DNA of 51,165 nucleotides from a bacterium (GTDB lineage Bacteria; Patescibacteriota; Minisyncoccia; Phycocordibacterales; Zambryskibacteraceae), in contig JAUSGI010000007.1 in assembly GCA_030649135.1 (NCBI GenBank), forward strand, positions 1-51,165, given 5' to 3'. The notes under the pieces were generated by a model, which did no database searches, was not told the DNA's origin, and was given only the letters and a program-made list of their open reading frames with translations. Shown one piece after another: positions 1 to 33,929 of the stretch (positions are counted from its first letter, which is position 1; each line of letters begins with the position of its first letter). Position numbers and translations under genes: made by a program.

Positions 1-1466
<1,466 letters not shown>

Positions 1467-1852: not shown

Positions 1853-1879
1853 CAATGAAATGGAGGGCTGGAATTCGTA

Positions 1880-1912
1880 TAAAACAAAGCCGCGATGCTG
1901 TGCCATCGCGGC
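1880..1912 (-). terminator. Rho-independent terminator after small peptide ORF
   Basis: 9-bp perfect stem gccgcgatg...catcgcggc followed on the minus strand by tttgtttta. Confidence 0.5.
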
Positions 1913-1950
1913 AGGTGCTGAGGTATGCACCCAACCCTTGAACTCCTCGG

Positions 1951-2067
1951 TCAGAGGAGGCGGAGGAGGTTCGACAAAATGATGTAGACGAGGGCACCCG
2001 CGCCAAGCACGAACGCCACGAGAATCGCCCCCTTTAGTGCAGTAGTCTTGATCTCCTCAATGTCCAT
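1951..2067 (-). CDS. Unannotated 38-aa hydrophobic peptide (MDIEEIKTTALKGAILVAFVLGAGALVYIILSNLLRLL)
   Basis: ATG at 2067..2065 is preceded by GGGAGGAA (Shine-Dalgarno sequence). A single TM helix is predicted. The stop is followed on the minus strand by hairpin gccgcgatg/catcgcggc (1889-1912) plus a T-run. The ORF falls below the track's length cut-off. Confidence 0.4.
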   Translation of the reverse strand: MDIEEIKTTALKGAILVAFVLGAGALVYIILSNLLRLL

Positions 2068-2147
2068 GGTCGATTCCTCCCTTGTCCTGCCTCCCCTTCG
2101 ACTATACTCAGGGTGAGGACTTGCCTACTCTGCATGATAGCACATGA

Positions 2148-2531
2148 CTACTTTTTTGTCAAATTAAAATCCAGACAAACGGAGTTAACGCAATATCTCT
2201 TGCCTGTCCCCGTAGGCCCGTCATCAAATAAGTGCCCCAAATGCGCCCCACACTTTTTACAAACCACTTCCGTTCTTTTCATGCCATGAGATTCATCTTC
2301 ACGGAGCTCAATATTTTCAAGATCAGCGGGCGCATCAAACGATGGCCAACCGGTACTCGAATCAAATTTTGCATCTGATTTAAAAAGCTCTGCTCCACAA
2401 TTTTTGCACACATACATCCCCTTATCCTTCATATGTACATACTTGCCACTAAATGGCGCTTCCGTCTGCTTCTCTCTCATCACCGCGTATTCTTCCGGCG
2501 TGAGTTTATTTGTCCATTCTTCTTCCTTCAT
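2148..2531 (-). CDS. msrB: Peptide methionine sulfoxide reductase MsrB (zinc type)
   Basis: GWPSF motif, two CxxC zinc pairs ([19 protein letters not shown]) and the catalytic region are present. Confidence 0.9.
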
Positions 2532-3093
2532 ATTTTAGCGAAGTTGGCGCCTTTTGGGGCAATTGCTTTAATAATTTCGAAAATTCTTTGTGCACCTTAT
2601 CAAGTTTCGGATTAATCACTATCTGGCAGTACGGGGCATTCTTATTATTGGCGTAGTAGTCGTGGTGATAATTTTCCGCCTCGTAAAATGTTTCGAGTGG
2701 CACAACTTCTGTCACTACCGGTGCTCCCACTTGATTAGAAGCATTGATTTCAGCAATAAATTTTTCCGCCTCCGCTTTCTGCGTTTCCGTGGTGTAAAAA
2801 ATAACCGAGCGGTATTGGGTGCCTATGTCGTTACCTTGTCTGTTGAGAGTCGTGGGGTCGTGACTAGCGAAGAAAATGGTTAGTAGAGTATGGTAAGAGA
2901 TCTTGTTCGGGTCGTATTCGATATAAATGACTTCGGCGTGCCCCGTTTTACCACTTGCGACTTGCAAGTAGGTTGGATGAGCCACAGTACCACCGGCATA
3001 ACCGGGCTTTACAGACGAGACCCCTTCAAGTGCCTTAAACACTGCCTCCGTACACCAGAAACACCCGCCGCCAAATACCGCTTTCTCACTCAT
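2506..3093 (-). CDS. msrA: Peptide methionine sulfoxide reductase MsrA
   Basis: GCFWC active-site motif near the N-terminus. Its 3' end overlaps the msrB start by 26 nt. Confidence 0.9.
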
Positions 3094-3350
3094 CGTTTCT
3101 TTAGAAATGTTTCTAAATCTGACTGCCCTTGTTTAAATTCATTTTCAATGTGGGAAAGTTCCGCTCTCAACTGGTCGGCTTCGACCTTCAATTTGGCCTG
3201 CTCGGATTCGTCTCTTTGTAATTCCGCCTTTTCCCTAGTGACTTTAGGCTCTTCGTTCCTCAACTTACGTTCAAGGTCTTCGAGTCTGTGCCTTTTGTCC
3301 TCCAAATTTCTTTTCAGGTCCTCCAACTGTTGCGCGGTTGTGATGGTCAT
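3090..3350 (-). CDS. Hypothetical coiled-coil protein (86 aa, charged heptads)
   Basis: ORF with ATGA overlap to msrA. Strongly Glu/Lys/Leu/Arg-rich and helical (LEDLKRNLEDKRHRLEDLERKLR). Confidence 0.5.
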   Translation of the reverse strand: MTITTAQQLEDLKRNLEDKRHRLEDLERKLRNEEPKVTREKAELQRDESEQAKLKVEADQLRAELSHIENEFKQGQSDLETFLKKR

Positions 3351-3444
3351 TTTTTATGGGTTATTTAAATAAGTTATCCTCGGCTATTCAAGACACCATC
3401 TTGAATTTGGCTCTTGAATTACTTAGGTTAATTCTAGCACTTTT

Positions 3445-3654
3445 CTACCTATTCTTGATTACTGCCTTTGTTTTGTCCACAACAACCGGATTTTTGATAA
3501 TTTTCTTTATAGACTTCAACGCTTTCTCCACTCCCTGCTTACTTTTATAAGTCTCCCCACTGGTCATGACCTTTTTATTATTCCCGGACTTAAAAGTGAG
3601 AAAAAACTCCCTATTTTTCGCCCTACCTATCTCAATTCTATTTTTACTTGCCAT
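3445..3654 (-). CDS. DUF1508/YegP-like small protein
   Basis: 69 aa with a pattern (FKSGNNKK...SGETYKSKQGVEKALKSIKK) that resembles the UPF0339/YegP repeat. Confidence 0.5.
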   Translation of the reverse strand: MASKNRIEIGRAKNREFFLTFKSGNNKKVMTSGETYKSKQGVEKALKSIKKIIKNPVVVDKTKAVIKNR

Positions 3655-3666
3655 AGTGTTTTTATA

Positions 3667-4146
3667 TTATTTGAAAAAGTTGAGCAGTCTACTAAAGAGT
3701 CCCATTTTCTTCATCGGCTTTGGTTGTTCACTTACTAAATTGTTTATTGGTGAACTCGAACCTGTCTCTATCTTTGGGTCAACAAGAGATTGCGATTTTC
3801 CTACAGGTATCTTTTTCACTTCCTTAATCGGAGCAGATTTGGTAGGTTTAGGTTGAGTAGTTTTTACACTAGGTATAACTTTTTGCTGAACTGGTTGAAT
3901 AATCTTAGGAACAATAACTTCAGGAATTGCTTCGGGGATATACGGGAATTCTATTATTTCTCCACACATTTTCATAGAAGAATAAGAGACGCTACTCTTT
4001 CGCCAGCCGTCGTTACAAATTACGCTCCCATCGCTGTCTGACCCCGCAGCACAACTTACTCCTCCGTGACCAGAACAAGCTCCACTTGCTGAAAATACGA
4101 GCACTGGAAAGAAAATTACCAAACTTAATATCAATATTTTTTTCAT
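3667..4146 (-). CDS. Secreted hypothetical protein (signal peptide, Cys-rich head, Pro/Lys-rich tail)
   Basis: N-terminal MKKILILSLVIFFPVLVFSASGA signal peptide and a 6-Cys segment. No recognisable domain. Confidence 0.5.
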   Translation of the reverse strand: MKKILILSLVIFFPVLVFSASGACSGHGGVSCAAGSDSDGSVICNDGWRKSSVSYSSMKMCGEIIEFPYIPEAIPEVIVPKIIQPVQQKVIPSVKTTQPKPTKSAPIKEVKKIPVGKSQSLVDPKIETGSSSPINNLVSEQPKPMKKMGLFSRLLNFFK

Positions 4147-4183
4147 ATCTTCTATAGGATATCATGGAATGACTAACTAGTGA

Positions 4184-4206
4184 CCGTCTGGTATGAAGTT
4201 GGAACC
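4184..4206. repeat. Direct repeat copy 1 (CCGTCTGGTATGAAGTTGGAACC)
   Basis: Near-identical 22-bp copy at 4933-4954. The two copies bracket CDS 4207-4917. Confidence 0.7.
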
Positions 4207-4917
4207 TTACTGTGAGACATTAGAAGGGGCTTTACCATCCTGTAAATCCTGAGCTCGTATTTGTTCGGCAAGCGACTTTCCTGTTGCCCCTTCAGCTATA
4301 TAAGACATTAACAGTAGTAACGATGTTGTATAGCCAAAAATTAAAGTGTGTATAGACTCGTCAAAGTTTTCTCTAGTACCATCATCCCTGTAGATAGTAC
4401 CATCTATCCTGTACTTACCATTTTTAACATAAACCATTAGATTGGGAGTTTTATGAGTTACTGAATCTCTTAATGATATGATATCCGTAAATAATTTACT
4501 ATTTAAATGAGTTTTGAATTTACTATTGAAACCCTTATATTTCTCCTTTTTAACTTGCTTTAGGAATTTATTGAAACTAAGTTCCTCAACTCCATATTGT
4601 TCTTTTAAAAACACGAGAAGGTAATCATAAACAGAACGAGCCAGAACTAAATATCCCTCAAACAAGGCTGCCAATATTTCATGATTAACATCATGTTCAT
4701 TATTTTTAATATGTTTACCTCCTGCCTTATACAAAATATCGCCTATTAATCCAACTCTAAATAACCGAAAGAAAAGTTGGGTTGATTTTTTGTCATTACG
4801 CTTACTAAGCACCTCTTTTACAAAATAATTTAAAGCTACAGCATGAAAAGCATATGATGATGGTTTATCGAAGTTGTATTTAAAATAGTTCTTTGTTAAA
4901 TCTAAACCAATGTTCAT
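4207..4917 (-). CDS. Hypothetical protein (236 aa), bracketed by 22-bp direct repeats
   Basis: Long ORF with no motif recognised. It is mostly helical and lies in the accessory islet. Confidence 0.55.
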   Translation of the reverse strand: MNIGLDLTKNYFKYNFDKPSSYAFHAVALNYFVKEVLSKRNDKKSTQLFFRLFRVGLIGDILYKAGGKHIKNNEHDVNHEILAALFEGYLVLARSVYDYLLVFLKEQYGVEELSFNKFLKQVKKEKYKGFNSKFKTHLNSKLFTDIISLRDSVTHKTPNLMVYVKNGKYRIDGTIYRDDGTRENFDESIHTLIFGYTTSLLLLMSYIAEGATGKSLAEQIRAQDLQDGKAPSNVSQ

Positions 4918-4932
4918 GACTTTATAATCTAG

Positions 4933-4954
4933 CCGTCTGGTGCGAAGTTGGAAC
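4933..4954. repeat. Direct repeat copy 2 (CCGTCTGGTGCGAAGTTGGAAC)
   Basis: 20 of 22 positions are identical to copy 1. It lies 15 nt upstream of the start codon at 4917. Confidence 0.7.
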
Positions 4955-5157
4955 TAAAATAATGCATAATACAAATGCCACATAAAGCTAGTGCGTGTTT
5001 GTTTAGAATTGACACACCTATCCCTTTCTATTAACTCACTCACCTCACTACACATTCCAACTTGGACTGCATAATGGTAATTTTCAAGTTTAACTATTAC
5101 TAGGGCAAACCAAATAATAATTATGGCTAAAGTAACGATAGTTATATTCTTTTTCAT
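4954..5157 (-). CDS. Small membrane protein (67 aa, N-terminal TM)
   Basis: IVTLAIIIIWFALVIV TM helix. It lies 12 nt downstream of the nucleotidyltransferase gene. Confidence 0.4.
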   Translation of the reverse strand: MKKNITIVTLAIIIIWFALVIVKLENYHYAVQVGMCSEVSELIERDRCVNSKQTRTSFMWHLYYALF

Positions 5158-5169
5158 ATCATTTATTGT

Positions 5170-6348
5170 TTAAAGCTCTACTTCCCACTGTGTAGAATAT
5201 TCTTTTTGAGTCTTTTGTACATTCTCTATTTTATCGCAAATAAATTGTTTTATGCTTTGGGTATTGCTTGTCCCGCCACTTCTATCATATCCCCAAAAAT
5301 ACTCCTTCGTTATACCGTCGTTTTGTGGAGTATAAAATTCTAATTTATATGGCTCGACATCACGTTCCATCCCAGTATAAGTAAGTTTTATTAATTTTTT
5401 GTTTCGACCACCAGAGATGATCATTTCTCTAAATATATTTGAGAATGTTGACGGTCTTATCATGCGGCCTCCCATTCTAGTAACATATGCAGCTATTTCA
5501 TCGAAAAAAGTGGGGACGGATTCAGCAAAGGAATTGTGCGCTGTCTCGAATGTCATCGAACTCTGAAGAGGTACTATTAAACCGCCCCATGATTGGGCGT
5601 AGGTTTCGTAAGCTGGAAAGTTACAAAAATAATCACGCATATGTTCAAATGACCTTGAAAAATCTGTTTTTGACAAAAGCACCCTAATTATTTGGCTTCT
5701 GTTAATTTCTTCGTTTGGAGATAAAAAAATTGAATATACTAAGTCAAAAAAATCTCCCGCCTTCCTTCTGTGTAAAAGGGTAATAAACTTTGTAGCTATA
5801 ATTTCTTCAAGTTTTTGGGACCTTACTTTGGTGTCACTAAATAATTCGTGATCAGAATATGGGTGAATAATAGACCTGTACTGTGGAGGAAGACTTAAGT
5901 TCTCTCCACGAGTTACATCTACCTGTGTTTTGAGGTTGAATTTTCCATCAGAATGTATTGCCTTGAAATACATTCTTGCCTCGAGGGCATCAACCTGCAT
6001 TTTTTCCGGCAAATTTTTATCCTCGACTCTCACCTCATCAACAAAAGGGATGCCAGTCTGTTTTTCGATGGAATGTCCAATATTGTTAAGTCTTTCTTTG
6101 AGAAATTCTTTTTCAACATGACTATATGCAGAGAAGTCTAAATCCCGTGCAAATCTAGTATCAGGATAATATAGCTTACGTAATGCACCACTACCTTTAA
6201 GAGTAAGTTGTGGGGAAAGGCGTGGATCAGAGGAAACCTCCTTTATAATCCAACTTTGAATATAATCTCGCTCTACGTCTGCCGGAGTAAGTTTAAATTC
6301 TATAGCCTTTCTTTTAATTTCTTCTGTGTCAAACATTTTTGATGACAC
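5170..6348 (-). CDS. AbiEii/DUF1814-family nucleotidyltransferase (putative abortive-infection/type IV TA toxin) with ~100-aa C-terminal extension
   Basis: DYIQSWII...LKGSGALRKLYYPDTRFARDLDFS matches the AbiEii GGTAL...R.SxDxDF Pol-beta NTase signature. No AbiEi-like wHTH partner lies upstream. Confidence 0.65.
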   Translation of the reverse strand: MSSKMFDTEEIKRKAIEFKLTPADVERDYIQSWIIKEVSSDPRLSPQLTLKGSGALRKLYYPDTRFARDLDFSAYSHVEKEFLKERLNNIGHSIEKQTGIPFVDEVRVEDKNLPEKMQVDALEARMYFKAIHSDGKFNLKTQVDVTRGENLSLPPQYRSIIHPYSDHELFSDTKVRSQKLEEIIATKFITLLHRRKAGDFFDLVYSIFLSPNEEINRSQIIRVLLSKTDFSRSFEHMRDYFCNFPAYETYAQSWGGLIVPLQSSMTFETAHNSFAESVPTFFDEIAAYVTRMGGRMIRPSTFSNIFREMIISGGRNKKLIKLTYTGMERDVEPYKLEFYTPQNDGITKEYFWGYDRSGGTSNTQSIKQFICDKIENVQKTQKEYSTQWEVEL

Positions 6349-6398
6349 TAACTATGCATCTTATGGAGAAGCAAGTAAATACCCTTTTTAAGCTTAGC

Positions 6399-6863
6399 TT
6401 AACTCATCTGATCTTCTCTAATTTTAGAGGTTTCCGTATTGTTCAATGGGGCTGCGCTGTAGTGAGTGGAGATGGTAACAGTATTTGATGAATTTTGGCT
6501 CGAAGCAGCTGCGGTGGTAGTAATGTTAGTATTTGCGGAAGTTTGATTTGCGGTGGTGGAAGTAGAATTTGCTAATGTCTCTGTAGTTAAACCTGTACCA
6601 CCTACAGTTATGTAATCCTTGATATTTGAAAAAGTAACGTTGCCGATGCCGCTGACATTCTTAATATCTTCAATTTTTTCAAAGGGACCATTCGTATTTC
6701 TGTAATCTATTATTCTTTGAGCATAAGCCGGTCCAATACCGTTTAATGTCTGGAGTTCACTAGAACCCGCTATATTGATATTAACGAGCGCTGCTTGAGC
6801 ATGTAAAGCTACTGGCAGGATTACCAGCAGTATGACAACAAAATATTTTCTATAAATACGCAC
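6399..6863 (-). CDS. comEA: ComEA-like helix-hairpin-helix DNA-binding protein (GTG start)
   Basis: Signal peptide, then INIAGSSELQTLNGIGPAYAQRIIDYR...GPFEKIEDIKNVSGIG tandem HhH, then a Thr/Ser-rich tail. Confidence 0.8.
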   Translation of the reverse strand: MRIYRKYFVVILLVILPVALHAQAALVNINIAGSSELQTLNGIGPAYAQRIIDYRNTNGPFEKIEDIKNVSGIGNVTFSNIKDYITVGGTGLTTETLANSTSTTANQTSANTNITTTAAASSQNSSNTVTISTHYSAAPLNNTETSKIREDQMS

Positions 6864-7003
6864 GGGCGTAGGCGATTATTCCGATACTGAAGGAGATGAG
6901 ACACAAGAACCCGAAAAGAAACTTAAAGAAGGTCCGATCAAAATAACGCATCGCTTGATTATAAATCTCTCTAGCCCAAATATCACCCAAGTTATCCCCA
7001 GCT

Positions 7004-7678
7004 TTACCGAGGGGAGGGCTCGGTAGGTACGTCATGGAAATTTATCCAATCACGAATATCTATTTTGAATTCCGCGATAGTATTAAAATACTTAGGAAAG
7101 ACTTCTGTATTTAGAATTACGCGTTCTTCTCTGTTTCCCGAAAGATAATCCAGGTAACTGGAATAAACATAATTATTAAGAAAAGATTCTGCTTGTGGAA
7201 TATCTAGGTTCTCTTTTTTCCAATTGGTATTAAGTATTTTCAATGGATTTAAATGTATGTAAGCGAATATATATTTCAAATATTCATCGACATCTAGATG
7301 AGAAGATTTGAACTCACTGCTGAAAAGCGCGCCGGTTCTCTCGTATTTCTTATTGAAATAAGTGGAATAGGCAGTCAGAAGCTTGCTCATAAATTTTACA
7401 ATACCACCCTCTGTGATTTCTTTAATTAGCAAATGAAAATGATTTGGCATTAGACAATAGGCTCCAATGGCCACCAGTTTTTGTCCGGTCTTAACATCTT
7501 TTAACGAAAATTTCTTGGTCTCTCTGTACATAACTGGTTTTGTTCCGTTGCAGAGAAGTAATAGACGTACGAATCTTTTTCTATCAGCATCATCCGGAAA
7601 GATGGATCGTTTATCAACGCCACGGCTATATAGGTGATAAAATTCTTCAACTGAAAAAATAATTTTACGTACTGTCAT
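7004..7678 (-). CDS. tnpA: IS200-like / REP-associated tyrosine (Y1 HUH) transposase
   Basis: HUH motif LMPNHFHLL and catalytic Tyr region YIFAYIHLNP. The likely start is MTVRKI at 7678. The track's 7705 start reads through the hairpin. Confidence 0.8.
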   Translation of the reverse strand: MTVRKIIFSVEEFYHLYSRGVDKRSIFPDDADRKRFVRLLLLCNGTKPVMYRETKKFSLKDVKTGQKLVAIGAYCLMPNHFHLLIKEITEGGIVKFMSKLLTAYSTYFNKKYERTGALFSSEFKSSHLDVDEYLKYIFAYIHLNPLKILNTNWKKENLDIPQAESFLNNYVYSSYLDYLSGNREERVILNTEVFPKYFNTIAEFKIDIRDWINFHDVPTEPSPR

Positions 7679-7763
7679 ATTTCCCGAGGGGAGGGCTCGG
7701 TACATATATTGTACCTTTAAAATAGAAAAAAGTTATCCACGCTTACCGAGCCCTCCCCTCGGT
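7005..7763 (-). mobile_element. Minimal IS200/IS605-family (RAYT-like) element 1 with terminal hairpins
   Basis: Hairpin taccgag-gggaggg-ctcggta occurs at 7005-7025 and 7683-7702. An inverted copy lies at 7744-7763. These bracket a single HUH-Y1 transposase gene. Confidence 0.7.
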
Positions 7764-7775
7764 GAACGATTAACA

Positions 7776-7804
7776 CAAAAACCGCCAGAGGGCGGTTTTT
7801 TGTT
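7776..7804 (-). terminator. Rho-independent terminator (aaccgcc-agag-ggcggtt + T-run), bidirectional-looking
   Basis: 7-bp stem with an A-run upstream and T-run downstream. Downstream of the minus-strand gene 7878-8483. Confidence 0.6.
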
Positions 7805-7877
7805 TGCCCGAGAAGCGCGGGCTTCGAGGGCGTCCGAGGCCGTTAGGCCGAGGACTTTACGAGAAACGAAGCTAAAA

Positions 7878-8483
7878 TTAGTAACTGCCGCTTGTCTGTA
7901 AGGCCTGTATTTCTACTTGGAGCTGTTGAATGAGTATTGAGATGAGTTCTTGTATGAGGACTATCAGTTGACTTTTGATTGCCGCGATAGCTTCCGCATT
8001 AGCGCCCCCAACGACTACTATTGGAGCAACCACTGGAGTAGCAACTGTCGTAACACCGCCCCCTCCACCACCAGCCTCATCAGTTCTAGAAGAAGAAGCC
8101 ACTTCAGTCGGGTCGGCACAGAGAGTGGTTGAAGGGACGATGGTCACAGTGATTGTTTCACTCGTCCCCAAGAGATTATAGCCGAGTGTCGACTCTGTAC
8201 TATTGCAGATGTTTACATCTTGTCCTTGACCGGTACTGGCCGACAACTTATTGAGATTCGGTGCAGTTACTTTGAACGAAGAGTTGGCTAGAATGTCTAC
8301 TGAGAAACTATCACTCCCAACCTCAATAGATTCTATCGTTCCTGTAGAACTTGTCGCATTGATTGTAATCCCGTTCACGGAGAAAACAACATCCGTCGTT
8401 AGAGTCACGTCATTGTAGGCGGCGAAAGCCAAGCTAGGTAGAAGAAGTGTCGCAATTGAACCTGAAAGTAATAATTTTTTCAT
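7878..8483 (-). CDS. Secreted Thr/Ser-rich protein with poly-Gly linker and C-terminal Ile/Leu/Gln coiled-coil
   Basis: Signal peptide MKKLLLSGSIATLLLPSLAFA, a GGGGGG stretch, and a C-terminal AIAAIKSQLIVLIQELISILIQQLQVEIQALQ segment. Confidence 0.6.
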   Translation of the reverse strand: MKKLLLSGSIATLLLPSLAFAAYNDVTLTTDVVFSVNGITINATSSTGTIESIEVGSDSFSVDILANSSFKVTAPNLNKLSASTGQGQDVNICNSTESTLGYNLLGTSETITVTIVPSTTLCADPTEVASSSRTDEAGGGGGGVTTVATPVVAPIVVVGGANAEAIAAIKSQLIVLIQELISILIQQLQVEIQALQTSGSY

Positions 8484-8955: not shown

Positions 8956-9037
8956 ACCTAATTATTATTTGATTTATCCTACTAACACACTTGATTATCT
9001 CATAGTTCTTGAGAAAAAAAAGCAATCTTCTGTGGAT

Positions 9038-9066
9038 AACAAAAACCCCGCCGAAGCGGGGTTTTT
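9038..9066 (-). terminator. Rho-independent terminator (ccccgc-cgaa-gcgggg + TTTTT)
   Basis: Perfect 6-bp GC stem with an A-run and T-run on both sides. Downstream of minus gene 9106-11073. Confidence 0.7.
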
Positions 9067-9105: not shown

Positions 9106-11073
9106 TTACGGGAAGGAAACGTCAGCTGTTCTCCAGTCTGTGGTCGTAGCCATGAAGGTAGTTCTCTGGATAACAGTTGAAAGATCTTTTGCAATCCATT
9201 CGAAGCCTTCGAAGCCGACTGCGTAGAGACTACCAAGGGTAGCTGAAACACCGTCTGCTGACCTACCAAGAATCGTCCAGGTAACAGGGATGGTAACTTC
9301 AGCGTTTTCAGCCAAGACACAACTATTCGTACCGGTTGAAACACAAGCGGTAGGAATAGAGTACGAGGATGAGGTAGCCTTGCTACCGAACGTGCCGTCG
9401 TAGGTGCCGTTGCGGTAGAGTGCGAACGAGCCCGTGGAGCTTGCGAAGAGAGGCGAGCCAGAAGCCACAGTACCAAGAGTGAGGTCGCCACCAACTGCTT
9501 TAACCTTGAAGTTGAATGTCGCGCTCAAGGTAGAAGTGCTAGAACCACCAGCAAATGGTATACCTTGAGGCACACCGTCTGTAGTGATTGACTTGGAAAC
9601 CAGGGTAAGTTGAGGACCAACCTTTCTGACCTCAATAACTTTACCAGTGGCAGAACCGGATTCAGTCAAACCAGTGCCAGCTGCGTTCTCTGAAGTAACA
9701 TCACCAGTGTCAATGTTAGCATCGAAGCTGTTAGAGGCAGCATCTACGCCACGGATATCAACCTTGACCGAAAGAGTCTTAGTTGTGTCCACTGGAATGA
9801 TGTAATCAATGTCAGTGAAGGTGGCGCTGTCCGAACCCGTAAGTTCGACGAGAGTTGCCGAACCTACTTTAACAGCGGGTGATACAGAAACATCGTAGAG
9901 CCAAGCGGTTGTCGCAGTGGCTGTATCAGCACCGGTCATGTTGACGTCAACAATAAGGTCGGTAAGAGTAACGTTGTCTTTTTCAGCTCTGAAGTCAGCC
10001 CTCAAGAGTTCTAGTTCATCACATTCATCTTCTGTTGAACTTCCGGTGCAGATGACTTGATTGGCAAGAGGACTGTTGGCATTGAGAGAAACGGCCAAAG
10101 TAGCACTCTCGGAAAGTTCGCTTTCAGAGGTGAAGTCGCGATTGAAGGCAGTAGCTGGACCATATTGGTTCACAGCCGCACCATCCACTCCGCGGACGCC
10201 ATCAACAGGAACGGTCAGTCTCCATGAGTCGCCGTTGAAGGTGTCATCCCATGCGCCCAGTGCATCAAGAGCAACGGAGAGAACTTTTGTTGTGCCCTTT
10301 GGAACAACAAAGCTCAAACCGGAAACTGTGATGTAGTAGCTGGTGCCATCCTTAACTATGGTGTCGATGTTAAGGTCAGATGAACCAAGTACGGTGGAAC
10401 CGTCCTTGATGTAGATCTTGTCAGCAATCTTCCTGTAGAAATCAGTGTCTGAAGTTGAAGTAGTATCGTTCTCATCAAGCTTCAATTTGACTCTCTCAAT
10501 CTTGATGTCAGAAGACTTGGCTTCCAGTTTGATGCCAAGAACATCTCTGTTCGTGTCTCCTTCATACAACTTTACTCCAGCGGGAGACGGATTGAGGGAA
10601 ACGGTAACGGTGCCTTCTACACCAATAGTAGTAATGCCACCGCCTCCACCCGGAGGAGGAACGGTTACAACACCACCACCTGCGTTAGCTTTTGCTCTGG
10701 AGATTGCACCCCAGTAACCAGCTGTCGGAGAAACTCCGTTAGCTGCTTGCCACCTAGCGACAGCGGCCTTTGTAAGAGAGCCGAAGTAACCCATGGCTAC
10801 GCCTGCTGGCATAACTAGGTGACCTTCCGCTACAAGCTTTTGCTGAAGAGCAACAACTTCCGCACCTCTCGAACCAACAGTCAGGTTTAGAGTGAAGGTT
10901 GTACCGGTTGATACAGCGCTTCCCTGAAGAGTGGCAAGTTGTGCCATAAGTGCATTGATTTGTGCCTGAAGTTCAGCAATGGTCACAGCACCCGCCATCG
11001 GTACAAAAGAACCGAAGACAAGTGTTGCGCCGGCTGCGATTCCAGCAATCTTTGCAATTTTAATTTTTATCAT
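9106..11073 (-). CDS. Large cell-surface protein: TM anchor, coiled motif, peptidoglycan-binding domain, Ig-like beta repeats
   Basis: MIKIKIAKIAGIAAGATLVF TM, TIAELQAQINALMAQLATLQ, then LTVGSRGAEVVALQQKL...FG.LT..AV..WQ..NGV PG_binding_1-like, then a long Thr/Ser/Val-rich region. The track start at 11109 is probably an upstream extension. Confidence 0.7.
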   Translation of the reverse strand: MIKIKIAKIAGIAAGATLVFGSFVPMAGAVTIAELQAQINALMAQLATLQGSAVSTGTTFTLNLTVGSRGAEVVALQQKLVAEGHLVMPAGVAMGYFGSLTKAAVARWQAANGVSPTAGYWGAISRAKANAGGGVVTVPPPGGGGGITTIGVEGTVTVSLNPSPAGVKLYEGDTNRDVLGIKLEAKSSDIKIERVKLKLDENDTTSTSDTDFYRKIADKIYIKDGSTVLGSSDLNIDTIVKDGTSYYITVSGLSFVVPKGTTKVLSVALDALGAWDDTFNGDSWRLTVPVDGVRGVDGAAVNQYGPATAFNRDFTSESELSESATLAVSLNANSPLANQVICTGSSTEDECDELELLRADFRAEKDNVTLTDLIVDVNMTGADTATATTAWLYDVSVSPAVKVGSATLVELTGSDSATFTDIDYIIPVDTTKTLSVKVDIRGVDAASNSFDANIDTGDVTSENAAGTGLTESGSATGKVIEVRKVGPQLTLVSKSITTDGVPQGIPFAGGSSTSTLSATFNFKVKAVGGDLTLGTVASGSPLFASSTGSFALYRNGTYDGTFGSKATSSSYSIPTACVSTGTNSCVLAENAEVTIPVTWTILGRSADGVSATLGSLYAVGFEGFEWIAKDLSTVIQRTTFMATTTDWRTADVSFP

Positions 11074-11274
11074 TGTTAATTTATTTTCTAATGCGTGAGT
11101 ACTTCCCAATAATTTCTAATATTTGCTCGGGTTGCGTCACGTGTACTAATTTTTGCCGAGAACGGATAAGCCTTTCCCGGCAAGTGTCTATTAATGTAAT
11201 GCCCACACCCCTAGATTATAAGGGATACTTCGGCAAGTGCCAAATATACTGTGGATAACAGTACAATACATGTT

Positions 11275-11998: not shown

Positions 11999-14167
11999 AT
12001 GGCAAAAAATGGAAAGAAACGAAGCAGAGATTGGGACGAAGATAGGATGTCGATTTTCAGACTCACTTCCAGAGAAACAGCCAACGGTATCTTGGGTGTA
12101 TTTTCAGTCGTGCTCTCTATCTTCCTTCTTTTGGGTGCCTTCGACCTGGCTGGTCAGGCCGGCACAGTAGTCTATAATTGGCTCTCTTATCTATTCGGCT
12201 TCGGTTACTATCTTTTGCCTGTAGTATTCCTCTTATTGGCCATATCGTTTCTCCGAGAACAGGAAAGAGACTTTGCCATGCCACAGATATTCGGCTCACT
12301 TATCCTTTTTCTCTCCTCTCTGGGTCTGGTCAATCTTTTCTCGGATGAGGGCGGTATTATCGGCGGTCTCATATCTAAACCTCTGGACTCTGTCTTTCAC
12401 ATCTATTTCAGCACGGTGATACTTTCAGCGTTACTTGTCGTCTCAATCTTAGTGATATTCAACACTTCCATAAAATTTGATGCTTTCTCATTTGTCAGAA
12501 AATTTTTCTCTAAGAAGGATGCCGGCACTCTAGCCACCGGGGAAAATGCCGCTGTTGACAAAGCGGTAGAGAAAATGGAAAAAACCGGAATACAAAGTGA
12601 AGAGCTGGCGCGAACGGGAGCAGTCCGCGATAAATCAAAAAACGAGGAGGGAGGATTCATACCGGAGATTAGACGCCGAAGCGGTAAGCGTTGGGTGCCT
12701 CCGCCAATATCACTTCTAGAAGGAGATCGCGGCAAGCCGGGTGTTGGCGACATCAAGGCCAACGCCAATTTGATTAAACGCACTCTCTTAAACTTCGGCA
12801 TTGTGGTTGAAATGGATGAAATCTCAATTGGCCCATCTGTCACCCGCTATGCTCTGAAACCGGCCGAAGGCGTCAAACTCTCGAAAATTATGGGACTCCA
12901 AAATAATCTCGAGTTGGCGCTTGCGGCACATCCGGTGCGTATCGAAGCGCCCATTCCGGGCAAGTCACTCGTAGGCATTGAGGTCCCCAATACACTCAAG
13001 TCCACCATTGGTCTCGGCTCGCTGGTTGCTGATGAAGAATTTACTCGTAGCGCGCTACCACTCCTAGTCTCACTCGGCCGAGATATCCCCGGCCGGTCAC
13101 ACTTTGCTAACCTCGGTAGAATGCCGCATCTCTTGATAGCCGGTGCCACCGGTTCCGGCAAATCTGTGACAATTCACGCCATCATCACTTCCCTGCTCTA
13201 CAGAAACCCGCCGGACAATCTCAAGTTCCTGATGATAGACCCCAAGCGTGTGGAACTGACCATGTACAACAATATTCCCCATCTGCTGACTCCCGTAATC
13301 ACCGACCCGAAGAAAGCTATTCTGGCACTAAAATGGGTGGCCAAAGAGATGGAACGCCGTTACGGCATCCTTGAAAAAAACAGCGTGCGGGACATCGATT
13401 CGTATCATAAGAATGAGAAGCCCGATGAGCCGATGCCTTTTATCATCGTCATCATAGACGAACTGGCCGACCTGATGCAGTCTTATCCGCGAGAACTTGA
13501 AGCTGCCGTGGTACGTCTGGCACAGATGAGTCGCGCCGTCGGCATCCATCTCATCCTCTCTACCCAGAGGCCGTCAGTAAATATCATTACCGGATTGATT
13601 AAGGCTAATATTCCGGCGCGTATCGCTTTGCAAGTGTCATCGCAAATTGATTCGCGTACGATTCTCGATGCGGCTGGCGCCGAGAAGCTTCTCGGCGCCG
13701 GCGACATGCTCTTCCTCTCCGGAGAGATGTCTAAGCCATTGCGTATCCAGTCTGCTTACATCTCGGAGAAAGAGGTGAAGGCGGTCACCAAGTACCTTTC
13801 CGATACTTACGCCGACGAACTTCAAACCGAAATTAATTTATCCAGCGACAACACCGCTAATGCCATCTTCACGGCGTCACTCGAGGAAGATTCGTATAGT
13901 GGGGATGATGACGAACTTTACGAAGAGGCGCGGGAAACTGTCATCCAGGCAGGTAAAGCCTCAACCTCATTTCTCCAGCGCAAATTGCGCATCGGCTACG
14001 CTCGTGCCGCGCGTCTGGTAGACATGCTCGAGGAACGCGGAGTAGTAGGTCAAGGATTTGGAGCCAAGGCGCGGGAAGTCATCGGGGCTGAAGTGGCCCA
14101 CCTGCCGGACAGGCAGGAAAGTGCCGAACCGGAAGTAGACAGAGAGAATACCGGGGAATCAGTATGA
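11999..14167 (+). CDS. ftsK: DNA translocase FtsK/SpoIIIE
   Basis: N-terminal TM helices, Walker A LIAGATGSGKSV, Walker B FIIVIIDELADLM, and C-terminal gamma wHTH (SFLQRKLRIGYARAARLVDMLEERGVV). Confidence 0.92.
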   Translation: MAKNGKKRSRDWDEDRMSIFRLTSRETANGILGVFSVVLSIFLLLGAFDLAGQAGTVVYNWLSYLFGFGYYLLPVVFLLLAISFLREQERDFAMPQIFGSLILFLSSLGLVNLFSDEGGIIGGLISKPLDSVFHIYFSTVILSALLVVSILVIFNTSIKFDAFSFVRKFFSKKDAGTLATGENAAVDKAVEKMEKTGIQSEELARTGAVRDKSKNEEGGFIPEIRRRSGKRWVPPPISLLEGDRGKPGVGDIKANANLIKRTLLNFGIVVEMDEISIGPSVTRYALKPAEGVKLSKIMGLQNNLELALAAHPVRIEAPIPGKSLVGIEVPNTLKSTIGLGSLVADEEFTRSALPLLVSLGRDIPGRSHFANLGRMPHLLIAGATGSGKSVTIHAIITSLLYRNPPDNLKFLMIDPKRVELTMYNNIPHLLTPVITDPKKAILALKWVAKEMERRYGILEKNSVRDIDSYHKNEKPDEPMPFIIVIIDELADLMQSYPRELEAAVVRLAQMSRAVGIHLILSTQRPSVNIITGLIKANIPARIALQVSSQIDSRTILDAAGAEKLLGAGDMLFLSGEMSKPLRIQSAYISEKEVKAVTKYLSDTYADELQTEINLSSDNTANAIFTASLEEDSYSGDDDELYEEARETVIQAGKASTSFLQRKLRIGYARAARLVDMLEERGVVGQGFGAKAREVIGAEVAHLPDRQESAEPEVDRENTGESV

Positions 14168-14518: not shown

Positions 14519-15529
14519 ATGGTAAAACTAAAAAATATAGAAGATAAGAGTCAGGGTAAAAATATAGATGCTACTCTAGATGCGATCAGGACCAAATTCG
14601 GCGAGGACTCAATCATGAAGCTTGGAGACAAACCTAGAGTAGGCATAGATGCCATCTCCACCGGCTCTATAGGCCTGGATGCCGCGCTCGGCGTCGGCGG
14701 TCTACCACGAGGTAGAATTATAGAAATTTTCGGTCCGGAATCTTCAGGCAAGACCACCCTCTCGCTCCATGTTATAGCCGAGGCACAGAAGACAGGCGGC
14801 ATTTGCGCCTTCATCGATGCCGAACACGCTATGGACCCGGAGTACTCCAAGCGTCTCGGTGTCAAAATCGATGAGCTCTTAATCTCCCAGCCGGATACAG
14901 GCGAACAGGCCCTTGAGATTGTGGACTCCTTAGTGCGCTCCGGCAAAATTGACGTCATCGTCATAGACTCGGTAGCGGCACTTACTCCTAAAGACGAGAT
15001 TGAGGGCGACATGGGAGCATATCACGTTGGCAAACAAGCGCGCTTGATGAGTCAGGCCTTGCGCAAGCTCACCGCCATCGTGGCGAAGTCTAAAACTATC
15101 GTTATCTTCATCAATCAAATCCGCATGCATATAGGCGTGATGTTCGGGAATCCCGAAACTACCCCGGGCGGCAAGGCGCTTAAATTTTATACCTCGGTGC
15201 GCCTAGACATTCGCCGCATTGCCCAGATTAAAAAGGGTGAGGAGGTCATGGGGGGACGCACTCGGGTCAAGGTGGTGAAGAATAAGGTGGCGGCGCCATT
15301 CCGACAGACAGAGTTTGACCTGATGTATAACGAAGGCATTTCGCGAGAGGGCGAGCTCATCGCGCTCGGCGAGAAATTTGGCATTATGAAAAAGTCCGGC
15401 AATTCTTATGAGTATGGGGAGACTAAACTTGGCCGCGGCTACGACGCCACTCGTCAATTCCTACGCGAAAACAAAAAAATTTCAGACCAAATTCTCAAAG
15501 ACATTCATGCTAAACTTAAGGAAACCTAA
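14519..15529 (+). CDS. recA: Recombinase RecA
   Basis: GPESSGKTT Walker A and conserved IDAEHA, L1/L2 loop regions. Confidence 0.95.
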
Positions 15530-16166
15530 ACTCGTCAACCTCGCAGGTCGACAACTTTAGTAGTTCCTTTTCATAAATTTCTGGCTTCACGTCAAATAGT
15601 TCGTAAAATAATTTTTTATTTATAATTTGCTCCATTGCCCCGTCTCCAAAGTAGTCCTTAAAACTAGACCATTTATAAGTTCTTAGAAAATCTAGAGCTT
15701 TTCTATTATTTCGAGTGGACATGTTTTTGCGATCCGAAGGAATAAGATCTAAAGGATTGATATCAATATAGTATGGAATATAAAGATATTGCCTCTCGTC
15801 AGTGATGGGAATTACCTTAGCCCTATTCTGAAAGACATAACCACTTCTCCCTTTGTTCCTTATATTGAAATACTTAGTAAATGCATTACCCAGACGTTTA
15901 GTAAATTCAATAATCCCTCCTTCGACTGCTTCATGAAGCAACAAGTGATAGTGGTTAGGCAGGAGACTCCATTTTAAAATTTCTACTAACTTTTCTCGCT
16001 CTGGTAACTTCGCCGCCTCAAAAATATTTTTAACTGTTCGGACCTTTCCTTTTTTATTGTTAAGTAAGAAAAGATTCTCAACAAACCTCTGGTAATCGCG
16101 ACCGTCATTGAAAATTTTGCGCTTTTCTATCCCCCGATTGCATACATGAGCGATGTCTCCAATCAT
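15516..16166 (-). CDS. tnpA: IS200-like / REP-associated tyrosine (Y1 HUH) transposase, second paralogue
   Basis: [13 protein letters not shown] and Tyr region [12 protein letters not shown]. About 40% identical to the first copy over the core. The ORF tail overlaps the recA stop by 14 nt. Confidence 0.75.
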
Positions 16167-16219
16167 TCTATAATTTTAAACCAATCTCCCGAAACTTGTC
16201 AACCTCGCAGGTTAACGAG
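15531..16219 (-). mobile_element. Minimal IS200/IS605-family (RAYT-like) element 2 flanked by 15-bp direct repeats GTCAACCTCGCAGGT
   Basis: Repeats at 15534-15548 and 16198-16212 (extended imperfect 25 bp). Each contains the ACCT-CGC-AGGT mini-hairpin. They bracket the second HUH-Y1 gene, and the element abuts and overlaps the recA 3' end. Confidence 0.65.
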
Positions 16220-16220
16220 T

Positions 16221-16264
16221 GATAACAGAAAACCGGCCGAAGCAGGTTTCCTGCCTCGCCGGTT
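16221..16264 (-). terminator. Imperfect long hairpin (aaccggc...gccggtt) after small ORF
   Basis: The inverted repeat overlaps the stop of ORF 16263-16448 and is followed on the minus strand by ttctgtt. Confidence 0.45.
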
Positions 16265-16448
16265 AGACTAGTACCTTTTCTGCATAGTACATGATGCAAA
16301 TTTCCGGACGTTCCTGCCAAGCCTGCTGGTCAGGGATTCCAGGAGAAACTTTCAGAACCACGAACTCTCCAGGTGCCAGTTTGTTGTCGTTAATGAAAGC
16401 CAGAACGTCATCATATAGACGGAATCGCCCAAGGAACCAGCTCTTCAT
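16263..16448 (-). CDS. Small hypothetical protein (61 aa) with strong RBS
   Basis: GGGAGG lies 7 nt upstream of the ATG, and a hairpin follows the ORF. No homology recognised. Confidence 0.45.
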   Translation of the reverse strand: MKSWFLGRFRLYDDVLAFINDNKLAPGEFVVLKVSPGIPDQQAWQERPEICIMYYAEKVLV

Positions 16449-16560
16449 TTTTCAAACCTCCCATGTTAATTTTGTACATTTGTCCTAATTATACACCATA
16501 CTAGTATTATGTCAAGTATATTTCGTGACTTAAATTAGCTATATTTTATATCTTACAAAA

Positions 16561-32330: not shown

Positions 32331-33929
32331 TTACATTCTTTCTGGAGTTGGGATGCCTAAAATATCTAAACCATTTTTCATTACGATATTAAAGGCTTTG
32401 GTGATAGCCAGGCGATAGGGAGATTCTGGAGAATCACCAATAATTTGCTCATGCGCATAGAAATTGTTGAAGCTCCCCGCAAGCTCTGTCAGATACGTAA
32501 CGATATAGTGAGGAGCATATTCTTTGCCAGCTCTCTCGACTACTTCCGGAAATCTATACAGAAGCTTTTCGATCCCATGAGTTTCCCTTAAGGTCAGACC
32601 TTGAGAATCAGTACTTAAGGTCTGACCTTGGGAATCTGCCCTCTCCAAAAGAGAGTTGGTACGTGCATATGCATATTGGAGATACACCCCGGAGTCCCCT
32701 TCGGTAGAGACGGATTTATCGATATCAAAAACAATGTCATTCCCTATCGCCTGCCGTAGAATCATGTATTTGATGGCCCCGATAGCCACCGCCTCGTCAC
32801 CCTTCACCTTCTTCTTTACTTCTTCAATTAACGCCTCGGCAGTGATGACATCTCCAGTTCTGGATGACATCTTGCCAGTAGGTAAACGGAGCATGCCGTG
32901 AGGCAAATGTTTAGTTTTTTCTGCCAGTTCTGGAAAAGTCAATTTCATAGCAGCCAGAAGTACTTTGAAATAGTCCTTAATCTCATTTCCAGTTACCACA
33001 ATAGATTTGGTATATGGATATTTCTCAAATTTAATTTTCGCTAAACCTAATTCTTTGGCCTCGTATGTTGGCAAACCGGCAGAACTTATAAAAACACGGG
33101 TATGAAGGGCCGGGTCGTATTTCTCCGCATGGAAAACGACAGCGCTGTCGCTTTCTTCAAATATCTTGCCTTTATTTTTTTCAACAATCTCTTTGCCGAT
33201 TTTTCCACCATCACTCTCGAAGAAAAAATAGTCAAACTTGGTACCAAGTCTTTTATAAATTGAATCAAAGTATTCGAGACTCAATTTTTTACCTTCATCA
33301 TAAACCTTGTTTATCTCCTCATCAGAGTGTTCGTATATCTTTTTATTTATTTCTTGAATCTCTTTCTTAGATTCGTCAGCTTCCTCATACGCTTTCGCTC
33401 CGGCCGGATATGGTTCCTTTTCTCCTCTTAATAGCCCCCAGACTGCTTTGGCCACATGGATACCTACGTCTCCCTGATAACAAGCCTGTTTAACCTCTGC
33501 ACCATTCCACGCGAAGACATTTGCCACGGTTGAACCGATAACGTTGGGCATAAGATGACCAATATGGAATTCTTTAAATGGATTCGGGTCGGTATGTTCG
33601 ACCATCACTTTCTCTCCCTTAAGATTTTCATTTTTACCAAACTCATTTTCCCGCTCGATAACCTCACCAATACTTTTCTTAAAAAATTCTGTTGACAGAT
33701 AGAAATTTACAAATCCTCCCCCAGCACCCCTAACTTCTTCTACATAGTACGGTTTATTAGAATTTAAGTAGACAACTATCTTTTGGTGTAATAAATGATC
33801 TTTGCCTCCAAGATGAAAAGAGTAGTCGCCATTTCTTAAATCAGTCGGATGCTCCACGACAAAGTCCCCCGCTTCTATACCAAGCGACTTCAGGGCTTCT
33901 GTTATTAACTTCCGGAGTTTTTCTTTCAT
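32331..33929 (-). CDS. argS: Arginyl-tRNA synthetase
   Basis: HIGH-type motif (FHIGHL), ArgRS N-terminal add-1 domain, and C-terminal DALR-like region ending ...ERM. An in-frame 24-bp tandem duplication lies at ~32590-32640. Confidence 0.88.
   Translation of the reverse strand: MKEKLRKLITEALKSLGIEAGDFVVEHPTDLRNGDYSFHLGGKDHLLHQKIVVYLNSNKPYYVEEVRGAGGGFVNFYLSTEFFKKSIGEVIERENEFGKNENLKGEKVMVEHTDPNPFKEFHIGHLMPNVIGSTVANVFAWNGAEVKQACYQGDVGIHVAKAVWGLLRGEKEPYPAGAKAYEEADESKKEIQEINKKIYEHSDEEINKVYDEGKKLSLEYFDSIYKRLGTKFDYFFFESDGGKIGKEIVEKNKGKIFEESDSAVVFHAEKYDPALHTRVFISSAGLPTYEAKELGLAKIKFEKYPYTKSIVVTGNEIKDYFKVLLAAMKLTFPELAEKTKHLPHGMLRLPTGKMSSRTGDVITAEALIEEVKKKVKGDEAVAIGAIKYMILRQAIGNDIVFDIDKSVSTEGDSGVYLQYAYARTNSLLERADSQGQTLSTDSQGLTLRETHGIEKLLYRFPEVVERAGKEYAPHYIVTYLTELAGSFNNFYAHEQIIGDSPESPYRLAITKAFNIVMKNGLDILGIPTPERM

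Follow-up and report, generated by a model that had tools for sequence, protein, structure and literature searches.

Results

A Y1 transposase-like gene framed by three copies of one hairpin

The window analysed here comprises positions 1 to 51,165 of contig JAUSGI010000007.1, from a bacterium of the Patescibacteriota, and it is the sequence in which hairpin copies, DnaA boxes and GC skew were counted. On its minus strand, at 7004..7678, lies a gene that we call Y1a, which encodes an HUH-Y1 protein of 224 aa belonging to class 2 of the TnpA-Y1 enzymes and resembling the transposases associated with repetitive extragenic palindromic (REP) sequences, the REP-associated tyrosine transposases (RAYTs). 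The 17-mer CCGAGGGGAGGGCTCGG, the core of a short hairpin, has exact matches at 7007-7023 (+), 7684-7700 (+) and 7746-7762 (−), all of them around Y1a. An earlier reading of the letters of the window (the original prediction) had described such a hairpin, present three times around the gene with the third copy inverted, and the exact matches bear this out. Three copies compare with 0.11 expected by chance, none of 100 shuffles of the window reached three, and no fourth match was found in the 51,165 bases even when 3 mismatches were allowed.

Hairpin 1 (7005..7025, +; TACCGAG-GGGAGGG-CTCGGTA) spans the final 7 codons and the stop codon of Y1a, and as single-stranded DNA it folds with −5.9 kcal/mol (z −4.3). 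Hairpin 2 (7682..7702, +; TCCCGAG-GGGAGGG-CTCGGTA) is placed in the 5′ leader, 4 nt ahead of the real ATG and downstream of a TACAAT hexamer that resembles a −10 element (7713-7708, minus strand); its counterpart in a related locus, L081, reads hairpin-taaagt-ATGACAGTT. Over 23 nt the two repeat each other directly and differ at a single position, hairpin 1 having tAccgag where hairpin 2 has tCccgag, because of which the stem of hairpin 2 is 5 bp and that of hairpin 1 is 7 bp. Hairpin 3 (7744..7763, −) is the inverted copy; together with hairpin 2 it makes up an inverted repeat resembling a REPIN (a paired REP element), and with hairpin 1 a 23-nt inverted repeat that encloses Y1a. The 41-nt spacer between hairpins 2 and 3 is as first described; the two are 100% complementary, over 19 nt rather than the 20 bp first given. 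In single-stranded DNA the lone hairpins fold with −4 to −5.9 kcal/mol, and the pair of hairpins 2 and 3 closes into one long hairpin of −25.2 kcal/mol (z = −7.1). Extrusion of a cruciform by this pair from duplex DNA is unlikely given the 41-nt spacer.

A stem with the marks of a terminator (7777..7800, aaaaaccgcc-agag-ggcggttttt; GC-rich stem with T and A tracts) ends the upstream gene at 7878..8483 (−) and marks the outer edge of the Y1a cassette in the comparison with L079, a related locus that lacks the cassette. The three hairpins lack a T-tract behind them and were all passed over by the terminator scan. The sigma-70 scan of the spacer between hairpins 2 and 3 gave no canonical promoter, the spacing in TGGATA-N20-TACAAT being too long. 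Rfam recognised no known RNA family in the cassette region, its sole match in the window being 23S rRNA at 1-1466, and a tRNA search of the window found none.

The longest open reading frame over the gene (7004..7705, −) begins MYRALPSG... and ends ...PTEPSPR*, and thus encodes RALPSG and TEPSPR at its two termini as originally stated. However, the start that is conserved in homologues is M10 of this frame (MTVRK, ATG at 7678-7676; M-x-x-R-...), the NCBI annotation of 224 aa agrees with the alignment, and in an orthologue of 78% identity taaagtATGACAGTT comes after the hairpin. Because the conserved start is Met10, hairpin 2 belongs to the 5′ leader and only hairpin 1 overlies real codons, so that the proposed location of hairpins inside both ends of the gene holds for the 3′ copy and not for the 5′ copy. 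The 3′ hairpin is read through by homologues of Y1a as well: the conserved protein ends near DWLNF, and the tails PTEPSPR, ALPSVKI and IQGPALDGTGDN are translations of the respective 3′ hairpins, the last of which continues through the DnaA-box-like sequence described below.

Y1a resembles TnpA-REP rather than IS200 transposases

Pfam assigns Y1a to Y1_Tnp ("Transposase IS200 like") with an E value of 1e-8. In an alignment of 28 family members, the invariant residues are H80 and H82 (PNHFHLL), Y140, N144 and P145 (YIHLNP), and Y170, S173, S174 and Y178. The arrangement Y...NP is characteristic of class 2, the TnpA-REP side of the Y1 proteins, whereas IS200 transposases have Y...Q and DH[VI]H and consist of a core of ~150 aa only (Quentin 2018, PMC6006769). 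The subclass criteria that we used are those in Table 1 of the same study, in which subclass 2.1 is marked by NH[YF]H, Y[IV]HLNP, an SS tail motif and a length of ~238 aa; this subclass corresponds to RAYT Group 1 (Bertels 2017, PMC5581495) and to most of the proteins called TIRYTs, tyrosine transposases associated with terminal inverted repeats (TIRs) (Di Nocera 2013, PMC3733652). Judged by these motifs, Y1a is closest to subclass 2.1, with a W motif of the form F-[SGE] versus W[EQ]/FQ in the subclass and a length of 224 aa versus a median of 238 aa.

The fold comparison placed Y1a nearest to 4ER8, the TnpA-REP of E. coli (table values 14.8 and 147), followed by 2VHG, the TnpA of IS608 (10.7 and 101), and 2EC2, a transposase of S. 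tokodaii (8.8 and 99). Single-sequence and profile searches of PDB sequences with both Y1 proteins of the window, Y1a and the paralogue Y1b described below, returned nothing significant. Homologues of Y1a are very numerous (at least 7,907), and the few source names listed among them point to Parcubacteria or Patescibacteria; the 90%-identity clusters listed for Y1a mostly hold 1-3 member sequences. Plasmid and phage collections contain only distant relatives (≤33% identity). The 51 kb hold one copy of Y1a, to which Y1b is 33% identical.

Y1a keeps its chromosomal neighbourhood

Relatives were compared as contigs or loci numbered L0xx and L1xx, among which L099 and L112 are contigs of one genome. 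The shared neighbourhood consists of a PG_binding_1 protein, Y1 and an HHH/ComEA or PKD protein; the other side holds FtsK, RecA and EF-P. This arrangement is kept at 60-78% Y1a identity in L074, L091, L093, L097 and L099. In L096 the cassette alone has been inverted in place (9840-10010), with both of its units of hairpin and DnaA-box-like sequence on one side of the gene. Synteny is partial in L109 (54% identity) and lost in L110 (P0120, 52-54% identity). Vertical inheritance like that of housekeeping genes is what sets RAYTs apart from insertion sequences (Bertels 2017, PMC5581495), and Y1a behaves accordingly, as a gene long settled in its place, present once and inherited vertically, rather than as an insertion sequence that hops.

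The cassette is missing from L079 and L084, where 45 nt (L079 4860-4905, L084 4750-4795) replace window positions 7005-7776. These 45 nt contain a palindrome with a 13-bp stem, ctttcgcaagaac-g-gttcttgcgaaag, between the same DnaA-box-like sequence and the same terminator. Relatives lacking the cassette, which the original prediction had proposed to look for, thus exist, but the L079 site is no clean empty site because another palindrome occupies it. The order of elements in L079 and L084 follows the "hairpin plus box" grammar described below with another hairpin.

A small open reading frame lies between the cassette and ComEA (~6850-6951, minus, inside ORF 6850..7035). It reads MRYFD(R/K)(T/A)FFKF..., is ~33 aa long and resembles a membrane peptide. 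Its start also follows Y1a in L074, L091, L093, L097 and L099, and the 5′ part of the frame is kept in the Y1-less L079.

The hairpins change together with the gene

Every orthologue examined has a hairpin of its own in the same layout, with one or two copies upstream of the start and one over the stop or last codons. The hairpin of the window is shared by L074 (TACCGAG-GGGAGGG-CTCGGTA), and L093 has decayed copies of this type. The others are TCCAAG-GGGAGGG-CTTGGA in L097, TCCAAGG-CCCGG-CCTTGGA in L091, TCCAAGG-ACCCG-CCTTGGA in L096, TCCAAGG-ACCGT-CCTTGGA in L110 and ACCAAGG-AGACT-CCTTGGT in L099. The window and L097 share the loop and differ in two stem pairs, with both sides of each pair changed (A-T/G-C versus T-A/A-T), that is, the changes are compensatory; between L091 and L099 the outer pair is flipped.

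In L091, L097 and L110 a third, internal hairpin is found at the same codons of the Y1 gene, and in each it equals the flanking hairpin of that locus, encoding IQGRALD (L091), IQALPLD (L097) and IQGRSLD (L110). A survey of 120 homologues found the internal peptide in 24, the peptide in the C-terminal tail in 13 and both in 8, and these 8 are mostly concordant, including reverse-complement readings of the loop (QGRALD/QGPALD). On the strength of these sequence comparisons, the three hairpins of the window appear to be the cognate REP-like sites of Y1a.

Copies of the hairpin occur away from the gene in relatives

An exact scan for the 17-mer in 185,579 species-representative genomes gave 72 genome matches, most of which we set aside as single chance matches in GC-rich genomes. 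In other metagenome-assembled genomes (MAGs) of the candidate phyla radiation (CPR), the exact window hairpin forms tight inverted doublets, taccgagccctcccctcggta-N(1-3)-taccgaggggagggctcggta, with 6-8 nt between the 17-nt cores and a folding energy of −26.8 kcal/mol. Three such doublets are in frame within essential-protein genes: in MnmA (L054, intact reading frame, peptide ...VLPSPPLGNFTEGRARYV...), in ArgRS (L057, intact reading frame, peptide ...RNRALPSVTYRGEGSV...) and in RseP (L051, L085 and L086, three independent assemblies, peptide ...TPSPPLGNYRGEGSV...). Intergenic singlets of the window hairpin are present in several contigs, some of them at synteny breakpoints upstream of msrA (L074, L078, L080, L082). 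In loci of ~20 kb, L096 has 5 copies of its own hairpin and L093 has 6, so that relatives hold 2-3 extra copies per ~20 kb.

Hairpins at the Y1 gene and copies farther off could be linked within a single genome in two cases. In the genome of L099, the 3′ unit of the Y1 gene reads CCAAGGAGACTCCTTGG-gagaa-ACTGGGGATAAC, and argS, ~20 kb away, contains CCAAGGAGTCTCCTTGG-ataaa-ACTGGGGATAAC together with a second, decayed hairpin, the whole being in frame and encoding NQGVSLDKTGDNTNQGISL. In the genome of L091 (Minisyncoccota), the 17-mer of the flanking hairpin is also found inside secA (L103 position 848). By their sequence, the argS and secA copies tie the flanks of Y1 to dispersed hairpins within one genome.

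A DnaA-box-like tag adjoins the hairpins

The spacer between hairpins 2 and 3 contains TTATCCACG at 7733-7741, which matches 8/9 positions of the DnaA box, in agreement with the original prediction. It is part of box 2 (7732..7742, +; GTTATCCACGC), which on the sense strand gives the order hairpin 3-ag-CGTGGATAAC. Box 1 (6991..7001, +; GTTATCCCCAG) reads on the sense strand of Y1a as hairpin 1-aag-CTGGGGATAAC, and is located just upstream of a promoter-like site of the operon of the small frame and ComEA downstream of Y1a. Two of the three window hairpins therefore carry the 3′ tag CTG(G/T)GGATAAC (sense strand; form aagCTGGGGATAAC). The corresponding 11-mer, GTTATCCMCRG, was observed 3 times in the window versus 0.09 expected, and DnaA boxes with one mismatch are not enriched there (18 versus 11.9 expected; 6 of 100 shuffles reach 18).

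The same grammar of hairpin and box is common to L074, L091, L096, L097 and L099. In L097 the order hairpin-caaaa-CTG(G/T)GGATAA occurs 3 times, and in L096 hairpin-CTGTGGATAA occurs 3 times, once boxed on both sides to give a 17-bp palindrome; in L099, L091 and L074 the box stands behind the 3′ hairpin. L093 has TTATCCACAG-tttttca-hairpin at least 4 times, and perfect TTATCCACAG adjoins the hairpins of orthologous loci. In at least 16 of the protein tails, the reading frame continues across the box and gives ...GDN or ...VDN. In the Y1-less L079 and L084 the box is retained beside another palindrome. One could regard box 1, which is kept in L079, as plain flanking or promoter DNA; this view was overturned by the unit of hairpin and box in argS of the L099/L112 genome, and we read box 1 as a tag because the unit is found moved into that gene. 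These comparisons show the "DnaA-box-like" site to be a tag that is conserved as part of the repeat unit.

We considered and rejected the possibility that the site marks a replication origin. An origin would be expected to show a cluster of TTATNCACA boxes at a GC-skew switch, usually near dnaA. The cumulative skew of the window is monotonic and gives no sign of an origin, boxes with one mismatch are not enriched, and the tag travels with the hairpin. Neither a link of the tag to DnaA nor a DnaA-like domain in Y1a was detected with Pfam or hhalign. The idea that the tail of Y1 is a helix-turn-helix (HTH) domain like DnaA domain IV, which binds the box, was likewise abandoned, hhalign giving a probability of 0.1% against domain IV of E. 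coli DnaA and Pfam no match at E≤1. TnpA-REP enzymes cleave at a CT beside the hairpin (PMC8266576), and a CT opens the tag in most units; by analogy, the CT at the start of the tag would be the cut site.

Solo perfect GTTATCCACAG boxes are also present between genes at 9030-9040 (−) and 11249-11259 (−). Upstream of the PG_binding_1 gene, GTTATCCACAG is kept as GTTATCCACAG-N3-4-(A/T)TTTAGGT in L091, L093, L097 and L099, and less completely in L074. This conservation suggests that solo GTTATCCACAG may be a regulatory site for some factor, possibly DnaA.

Other palindromes and variable regions of the window

The second Y1 gene, Y1b (15516..16166, −), encodes a protein of 216 aa with the motifs NHYH, YIDINP and WSS. 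It has hairpins of its own type, GTCAACCT-CGC-AGGT(C/T)(G/A)AC, in the same design as Y1a: one at the 3′ end (15534..15552, +; GTCAACCT-CGC-AGGTCGAC), which covers the final Y1b codons and directly adjoins the stop of recA, and one upstream (16195..16219, +; CTTGTCAACCT-CGC-AGGTTAACGAG), ~30 nt 5′ of the start. The stretch 15516-16560 holds, after Y1b, a small gene that has a terminator of its own. L074 is syntenic but lacks the whole of this ~1-kb insert between recA and efp, the two genes being ~13 nt apart there. Orthologues of Y1b occur in three contexts (efp-recA, obg-gatB and OTCase-tig) and keep the end hairpins in all three. Because it is absent from L074 and found in three unrelated contexts, Y1b looks more mobile and more like an insertion sequence than Y1a.

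The ArgRS gene of the window (32331..33929, minus) also contains an inverted doublet, at 32590..32629 (AAGGTCAGACCTT ... AAGGTCTGACCTT), which is in frame and encodes SQGQTL..SQGLTL. This doublet is of another hairpin family than that of Y1a; it shares its site and its length of 16 codons with the CCGAGGGGAGGGCTCGG (CCGAG) doublet in L057. Among the 120 closest ArgRS homologues, the loop at this site is ~10 aa long when plain and otherwise holds at least 8 different palindrome-encoded inserts. None of the compared loci contains an MnmA orthologue.

A further doublet is found in the 23S rRNA gene, the 5′ part of which occupies positions 1-1466 (minus). It lies at 114..150 (AACCTGCCAGGTT ... AACCTGGCAGGTT), has the Y1b-type core AACCTG(C/G)CAGGTT and forms the centre of a ~70-nt insertion at ~88-180, at a helix tip. 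The insertion is absent from L082, L083, L088 and L090; in relatives a short hairpin with CGAA as its loop takes its place. A perfect 30-nt palindrome in ftsK (13673-13702) was rejected as an insertion, as it encodes the conserved motif GAEKLLGAG, and it is probably a by-product of a palindromic peptide.

The segment ~1855-6646 of the window, with an AbiEii-family gene (5170..6348), MsrA and MsrB, is variable among close relatives, and solitary hairpins mark the edges of this block in relatives. In L079, L084 and L088 a hairpin comes right after the equivalent of window position 1855, with ctgtcatattta, a sequence similar to that at the 5′ end of Y1a, ahead of it. In L074, L078, L080 and L082 the hairpin stands upstream of the msrA promoter, and the distal flank is different in each.

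Discussion

We consider it likely that the region is a cassette resembling the REPtron, a RAYT gene with its REP sequences, or the corresponding TIRtron, in which a domesticated class-2 HUH-Y1 enzyme, an endonuclease and ligase of single-stranded DNA, is combined with cognate, partly tagged hairpins in a member of the Parcubacteria (CPR). The observations that carry this interpretation are the anatomy of the locus, the class and fold of the protein, the synteny, the covariation of hairpin and gene, and the dispersal of hairpins in relatives. The original prediction had also placed the locus nearer to REP/RAYT organisation than to a classical IS200; the placement survives through the motifs, the fold, the synteny, the co-varying hairpins and the dispersed copies, but its own argument, the layout of the hairpins, is weak. 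Elements of the IS608 type in the IS200/IS605 family have near-identical subterminal hairpins in direct orientation at both ends (the imperfect palindromes IPL and IPR), and since they share it, the layout alone does not discriminate.

Several results weigh against the cassette interpretation. Y1a scores 36.1 bits with the NCBIfam RayT equivalog model NF047646 (REP_Tyr_transpos), for which the cut-off is 80. No C-terminal HTH (Bac_DnaA_C, HTH_23 or HTH_28-like) was matched by Pfam at E≤1 in the 28 members, the sequence GT[AG]G is absent from the 5′ feet of the hairpins, which read tTTA, aTTA and ATA, and subclass 2.1 has been reported to be without REPs (Quentin 2018, PMC6006769). There is no copy of the hairpin outside the cassette in the 51 kb. 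A dispersed REP family, as envisaged at the outset, is therefore not shown for this genome, whose only three copies in that length sit at Y1a, although copies away from the gene do exist in relatives. The MAGs with doublets are tied to Y1a through the sequence of the hairpin, and the maximum among the representative genomes is 4 exact copies per genome, far below the abundance of classical REPs. Flanking 16-mers of RAYT Group 1 occur ~12 times (Bertels 2017, PMC5581495), and the low copy number of the hairpin fits this group better than classical REPs.

REPtrons have been described in E. coli, Pseudomonas and Stenotrophomonas (Nunvar 2010; Bertels and Rainey 2011; Ton-Hoang 2012; Corneloup 2021, PMC8266576). 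Like them, the Y1a locus has a single-copy, vertically inherited class-2 Y1 gene whose product is nearest in fold to 4ER8, and this gene is bracketed by a short hairpin in both orientations, which includes a REPIN-like pair, covaries with the gene and has copies elsewhere in the genome. Unlike them, it has no 5′ GTAG/GTGG, some of its units bear the 3′ tag CTG(G/T)GGATAAC, the copies per genome are few (tens to hundreds in REPtrons, none outside the cassette here), a hairpin covers the stop codon and in some lineages lies inside the gene, the protein falls below the RayT equivalog cut-off, and the host is a CPR bacterium. With subclass 2.1, RAYT Group 1 or the TIRYTs, Y1a shares NH[YF]H, Y[IV]HLNP, the SS tail, a similar length (~224 versus 238 aa) and a low copy number, and its flanking repeats, like those of a TIRtron, are partly self-complementary and moderately repeated. 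The TIR consensus GGGGWSAS is matched at 7/8 positions by GGGGAGGG and at 6/8 by GGGGATAA in the tag. It differs from subclass 2.1 in that hairpins flank every orthologue and that the C-terminal similarity to HTH/Bac_DnaA_C is undetected, and from published TIRs in that the tag of its repeat resembles a DnaA box.

The IS200/IS605 elements (IS608, ISDra2, IS200) have in common with the locus the HUH-Y1 core, subterminal hairpins on one strand at both ends, the lack of classical inverted terminal repeats and a presence/absence polymorphism, which is clearest for Y1b; the class-2 motifs, the larger protein, the fixed chromosomal position, the lack of multi-copy behaviour and the dispersal of hairpins free of the gene set Y1a apart from them. 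The Rickettsia palindromic elements, reportedly described by Ogata in 2000, are said to be short palindromic repeats inserted in frame into essential genes. These elements and intragenic REPs (Di Nocera 2013, PMC3733652) resemble the doublets in that in-frame palindromes in essential genes, including those of aminoacyl-tRNA synthetases, add a peptide to a loop; the differences are the tight doublets of a 21-nt hairpin, the occurrence of several unrelated families in one ArgRS loop across different Parcubacteria and the candidate cognate Y1 gene.

How might such a cassette work? Binding, cleavage and mobilisation of the hairpins by Y1a may be supposed by analogy with characterised Y1 enzymes. 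As for TnpA-REP and IS608, the hairpin would be bound by a Y1 dimer once the DNA is single-stranded, for example in the lagging-strand template; the dimer would cut beside the hairpin, possibly at the CT that opens the tag, and would rejoin the strands. Cutting and rejoining could copy hairpins to other places or overwrite those already there. Such copying or overwriting would give singlets and tight inverted doublets elsewhere, including in-frame doublets in surface loops of essential proteins; it would homogenise the 5′, internal and 3′ hairpins of each lineage, so that they evolve in concert; it would bring different hairpin families to one site, as in the ArgRS loop and at the L079 site; and short palindromes would survive where they are in frame in protein loops or in rRNA helices.

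A broader and more tentative proposal, which we hold to be possible although it has the odds against it, is that Parcubacteria have a hitherto undescribed class of tagged palindromic repeats, each a variable hairpin with the constant tag CTG(G/T)GGATAAC, that resident Y1 enzymes keep and overwrite in place. This process would also give rise to in-frame peptides in essential proteins and to expansion segments in rRNA, and the tag could couple it to DnaA or replication. A site would then persist while its hairpin is swapped for the current family of the lineage. The concerted hairpins of the Y1 genes, the differing families in the ArgRS loop and the palindrome beside the same box in L079 fit this proposal.

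Alternatively, the locus could be an ordinary autonomous IS200/IS605 element that transposes as a unit, with hairpins 1 and 2 (or 1 and 3) as its subterminal left and right ends. The Pfam class, the near-identical hairpins in direct orientation at both ends and the lack of the cassette at the site in L079 and L084 are what such an element would show, and the same reading is more plausible for the paralogue Y1b, which is more like an insertion sequence. For Y1a, however, we judge it unlikely. The protein has YIHLNP instead of Y...Q, NHFH instead of DH[VI]H and 224 instead of ~150 aa, and its fold is nearer to TnpA-REP; each locus has one copy, and the 90%-identity clusters among those listed are tiny; the neighbourhood is the same across lineages that are 54-65% identical; the other palindrome in L079 leaves no clean empty site; and the hairpins have spread without the gene.

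Still less probable, in our estimate, is that hairpins and box serve the host in regulation, for instance as terminators, stabilisers of mRNA or binding sites for DnaA or another factor, and have no functional link to Y1. Hairpin 3 does come just after a terminator, hairpin 2 is in the 5′ leader by the start codon, box 1 abuts the promoter-like site, all loci keep a solo GTTATCCACAG ahead of the PG_binding_1 gene, and the box survives in the Y1-less L079. Yet no hairpin has a T-tract behind it or was called as a terminator, hairpins are found in frame inside argS, mnmA, rseP, secA and the Y1 gene itself, and the hairpin differs by lineage but always matches between the two Y1 flanks of a given lineage. 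Finally, chance or misassembly as the source of the repeats deserves hardly any credence: the hairpin lies at or close to the ends of several related metagenome contigs, but 0/100 shuffles reach three copies, and an assembly artefact is refuted by independent assemblies, namely of the cassette in a Logan contig and a JGI contig and of the rseP doublet in three.

To our knowledge, the characterised REP/RAYT systems come almost exclusively from Proteobacteria and a handful of further phyla. Among the 15 top-ranked of 664 papers in a full-text literature search, none paired RAYT, TnpA-REP or TIRYT with CPR or Patescibacteria. REP/RAYT systems, TIRYTs and intragenic REPs are already known; what is new here is the CPR/Parcubacteria host, a subclass-2.1-like protein with clear hairpins, the 3′ DnaA-box-like tag, the fixed layout and the concerted hairpins.

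RAYT Group 1, or subclass 2.1, is a large group that has been described without REPs, and the huge branch in Parcubacteria examined here, which has the motif signature of this group (at least 7,907 homologues), shows cognate hairpins in a fixed layout. If the cassette interpretation is true, these hairpins would offer a natural substrate for the biochemistry of the group. Some of the unusual insertions seen in CPR proteins and rRNAs would also find an explanation, and the locus would provide a compact model for the turnover of palindromic repeats in place.

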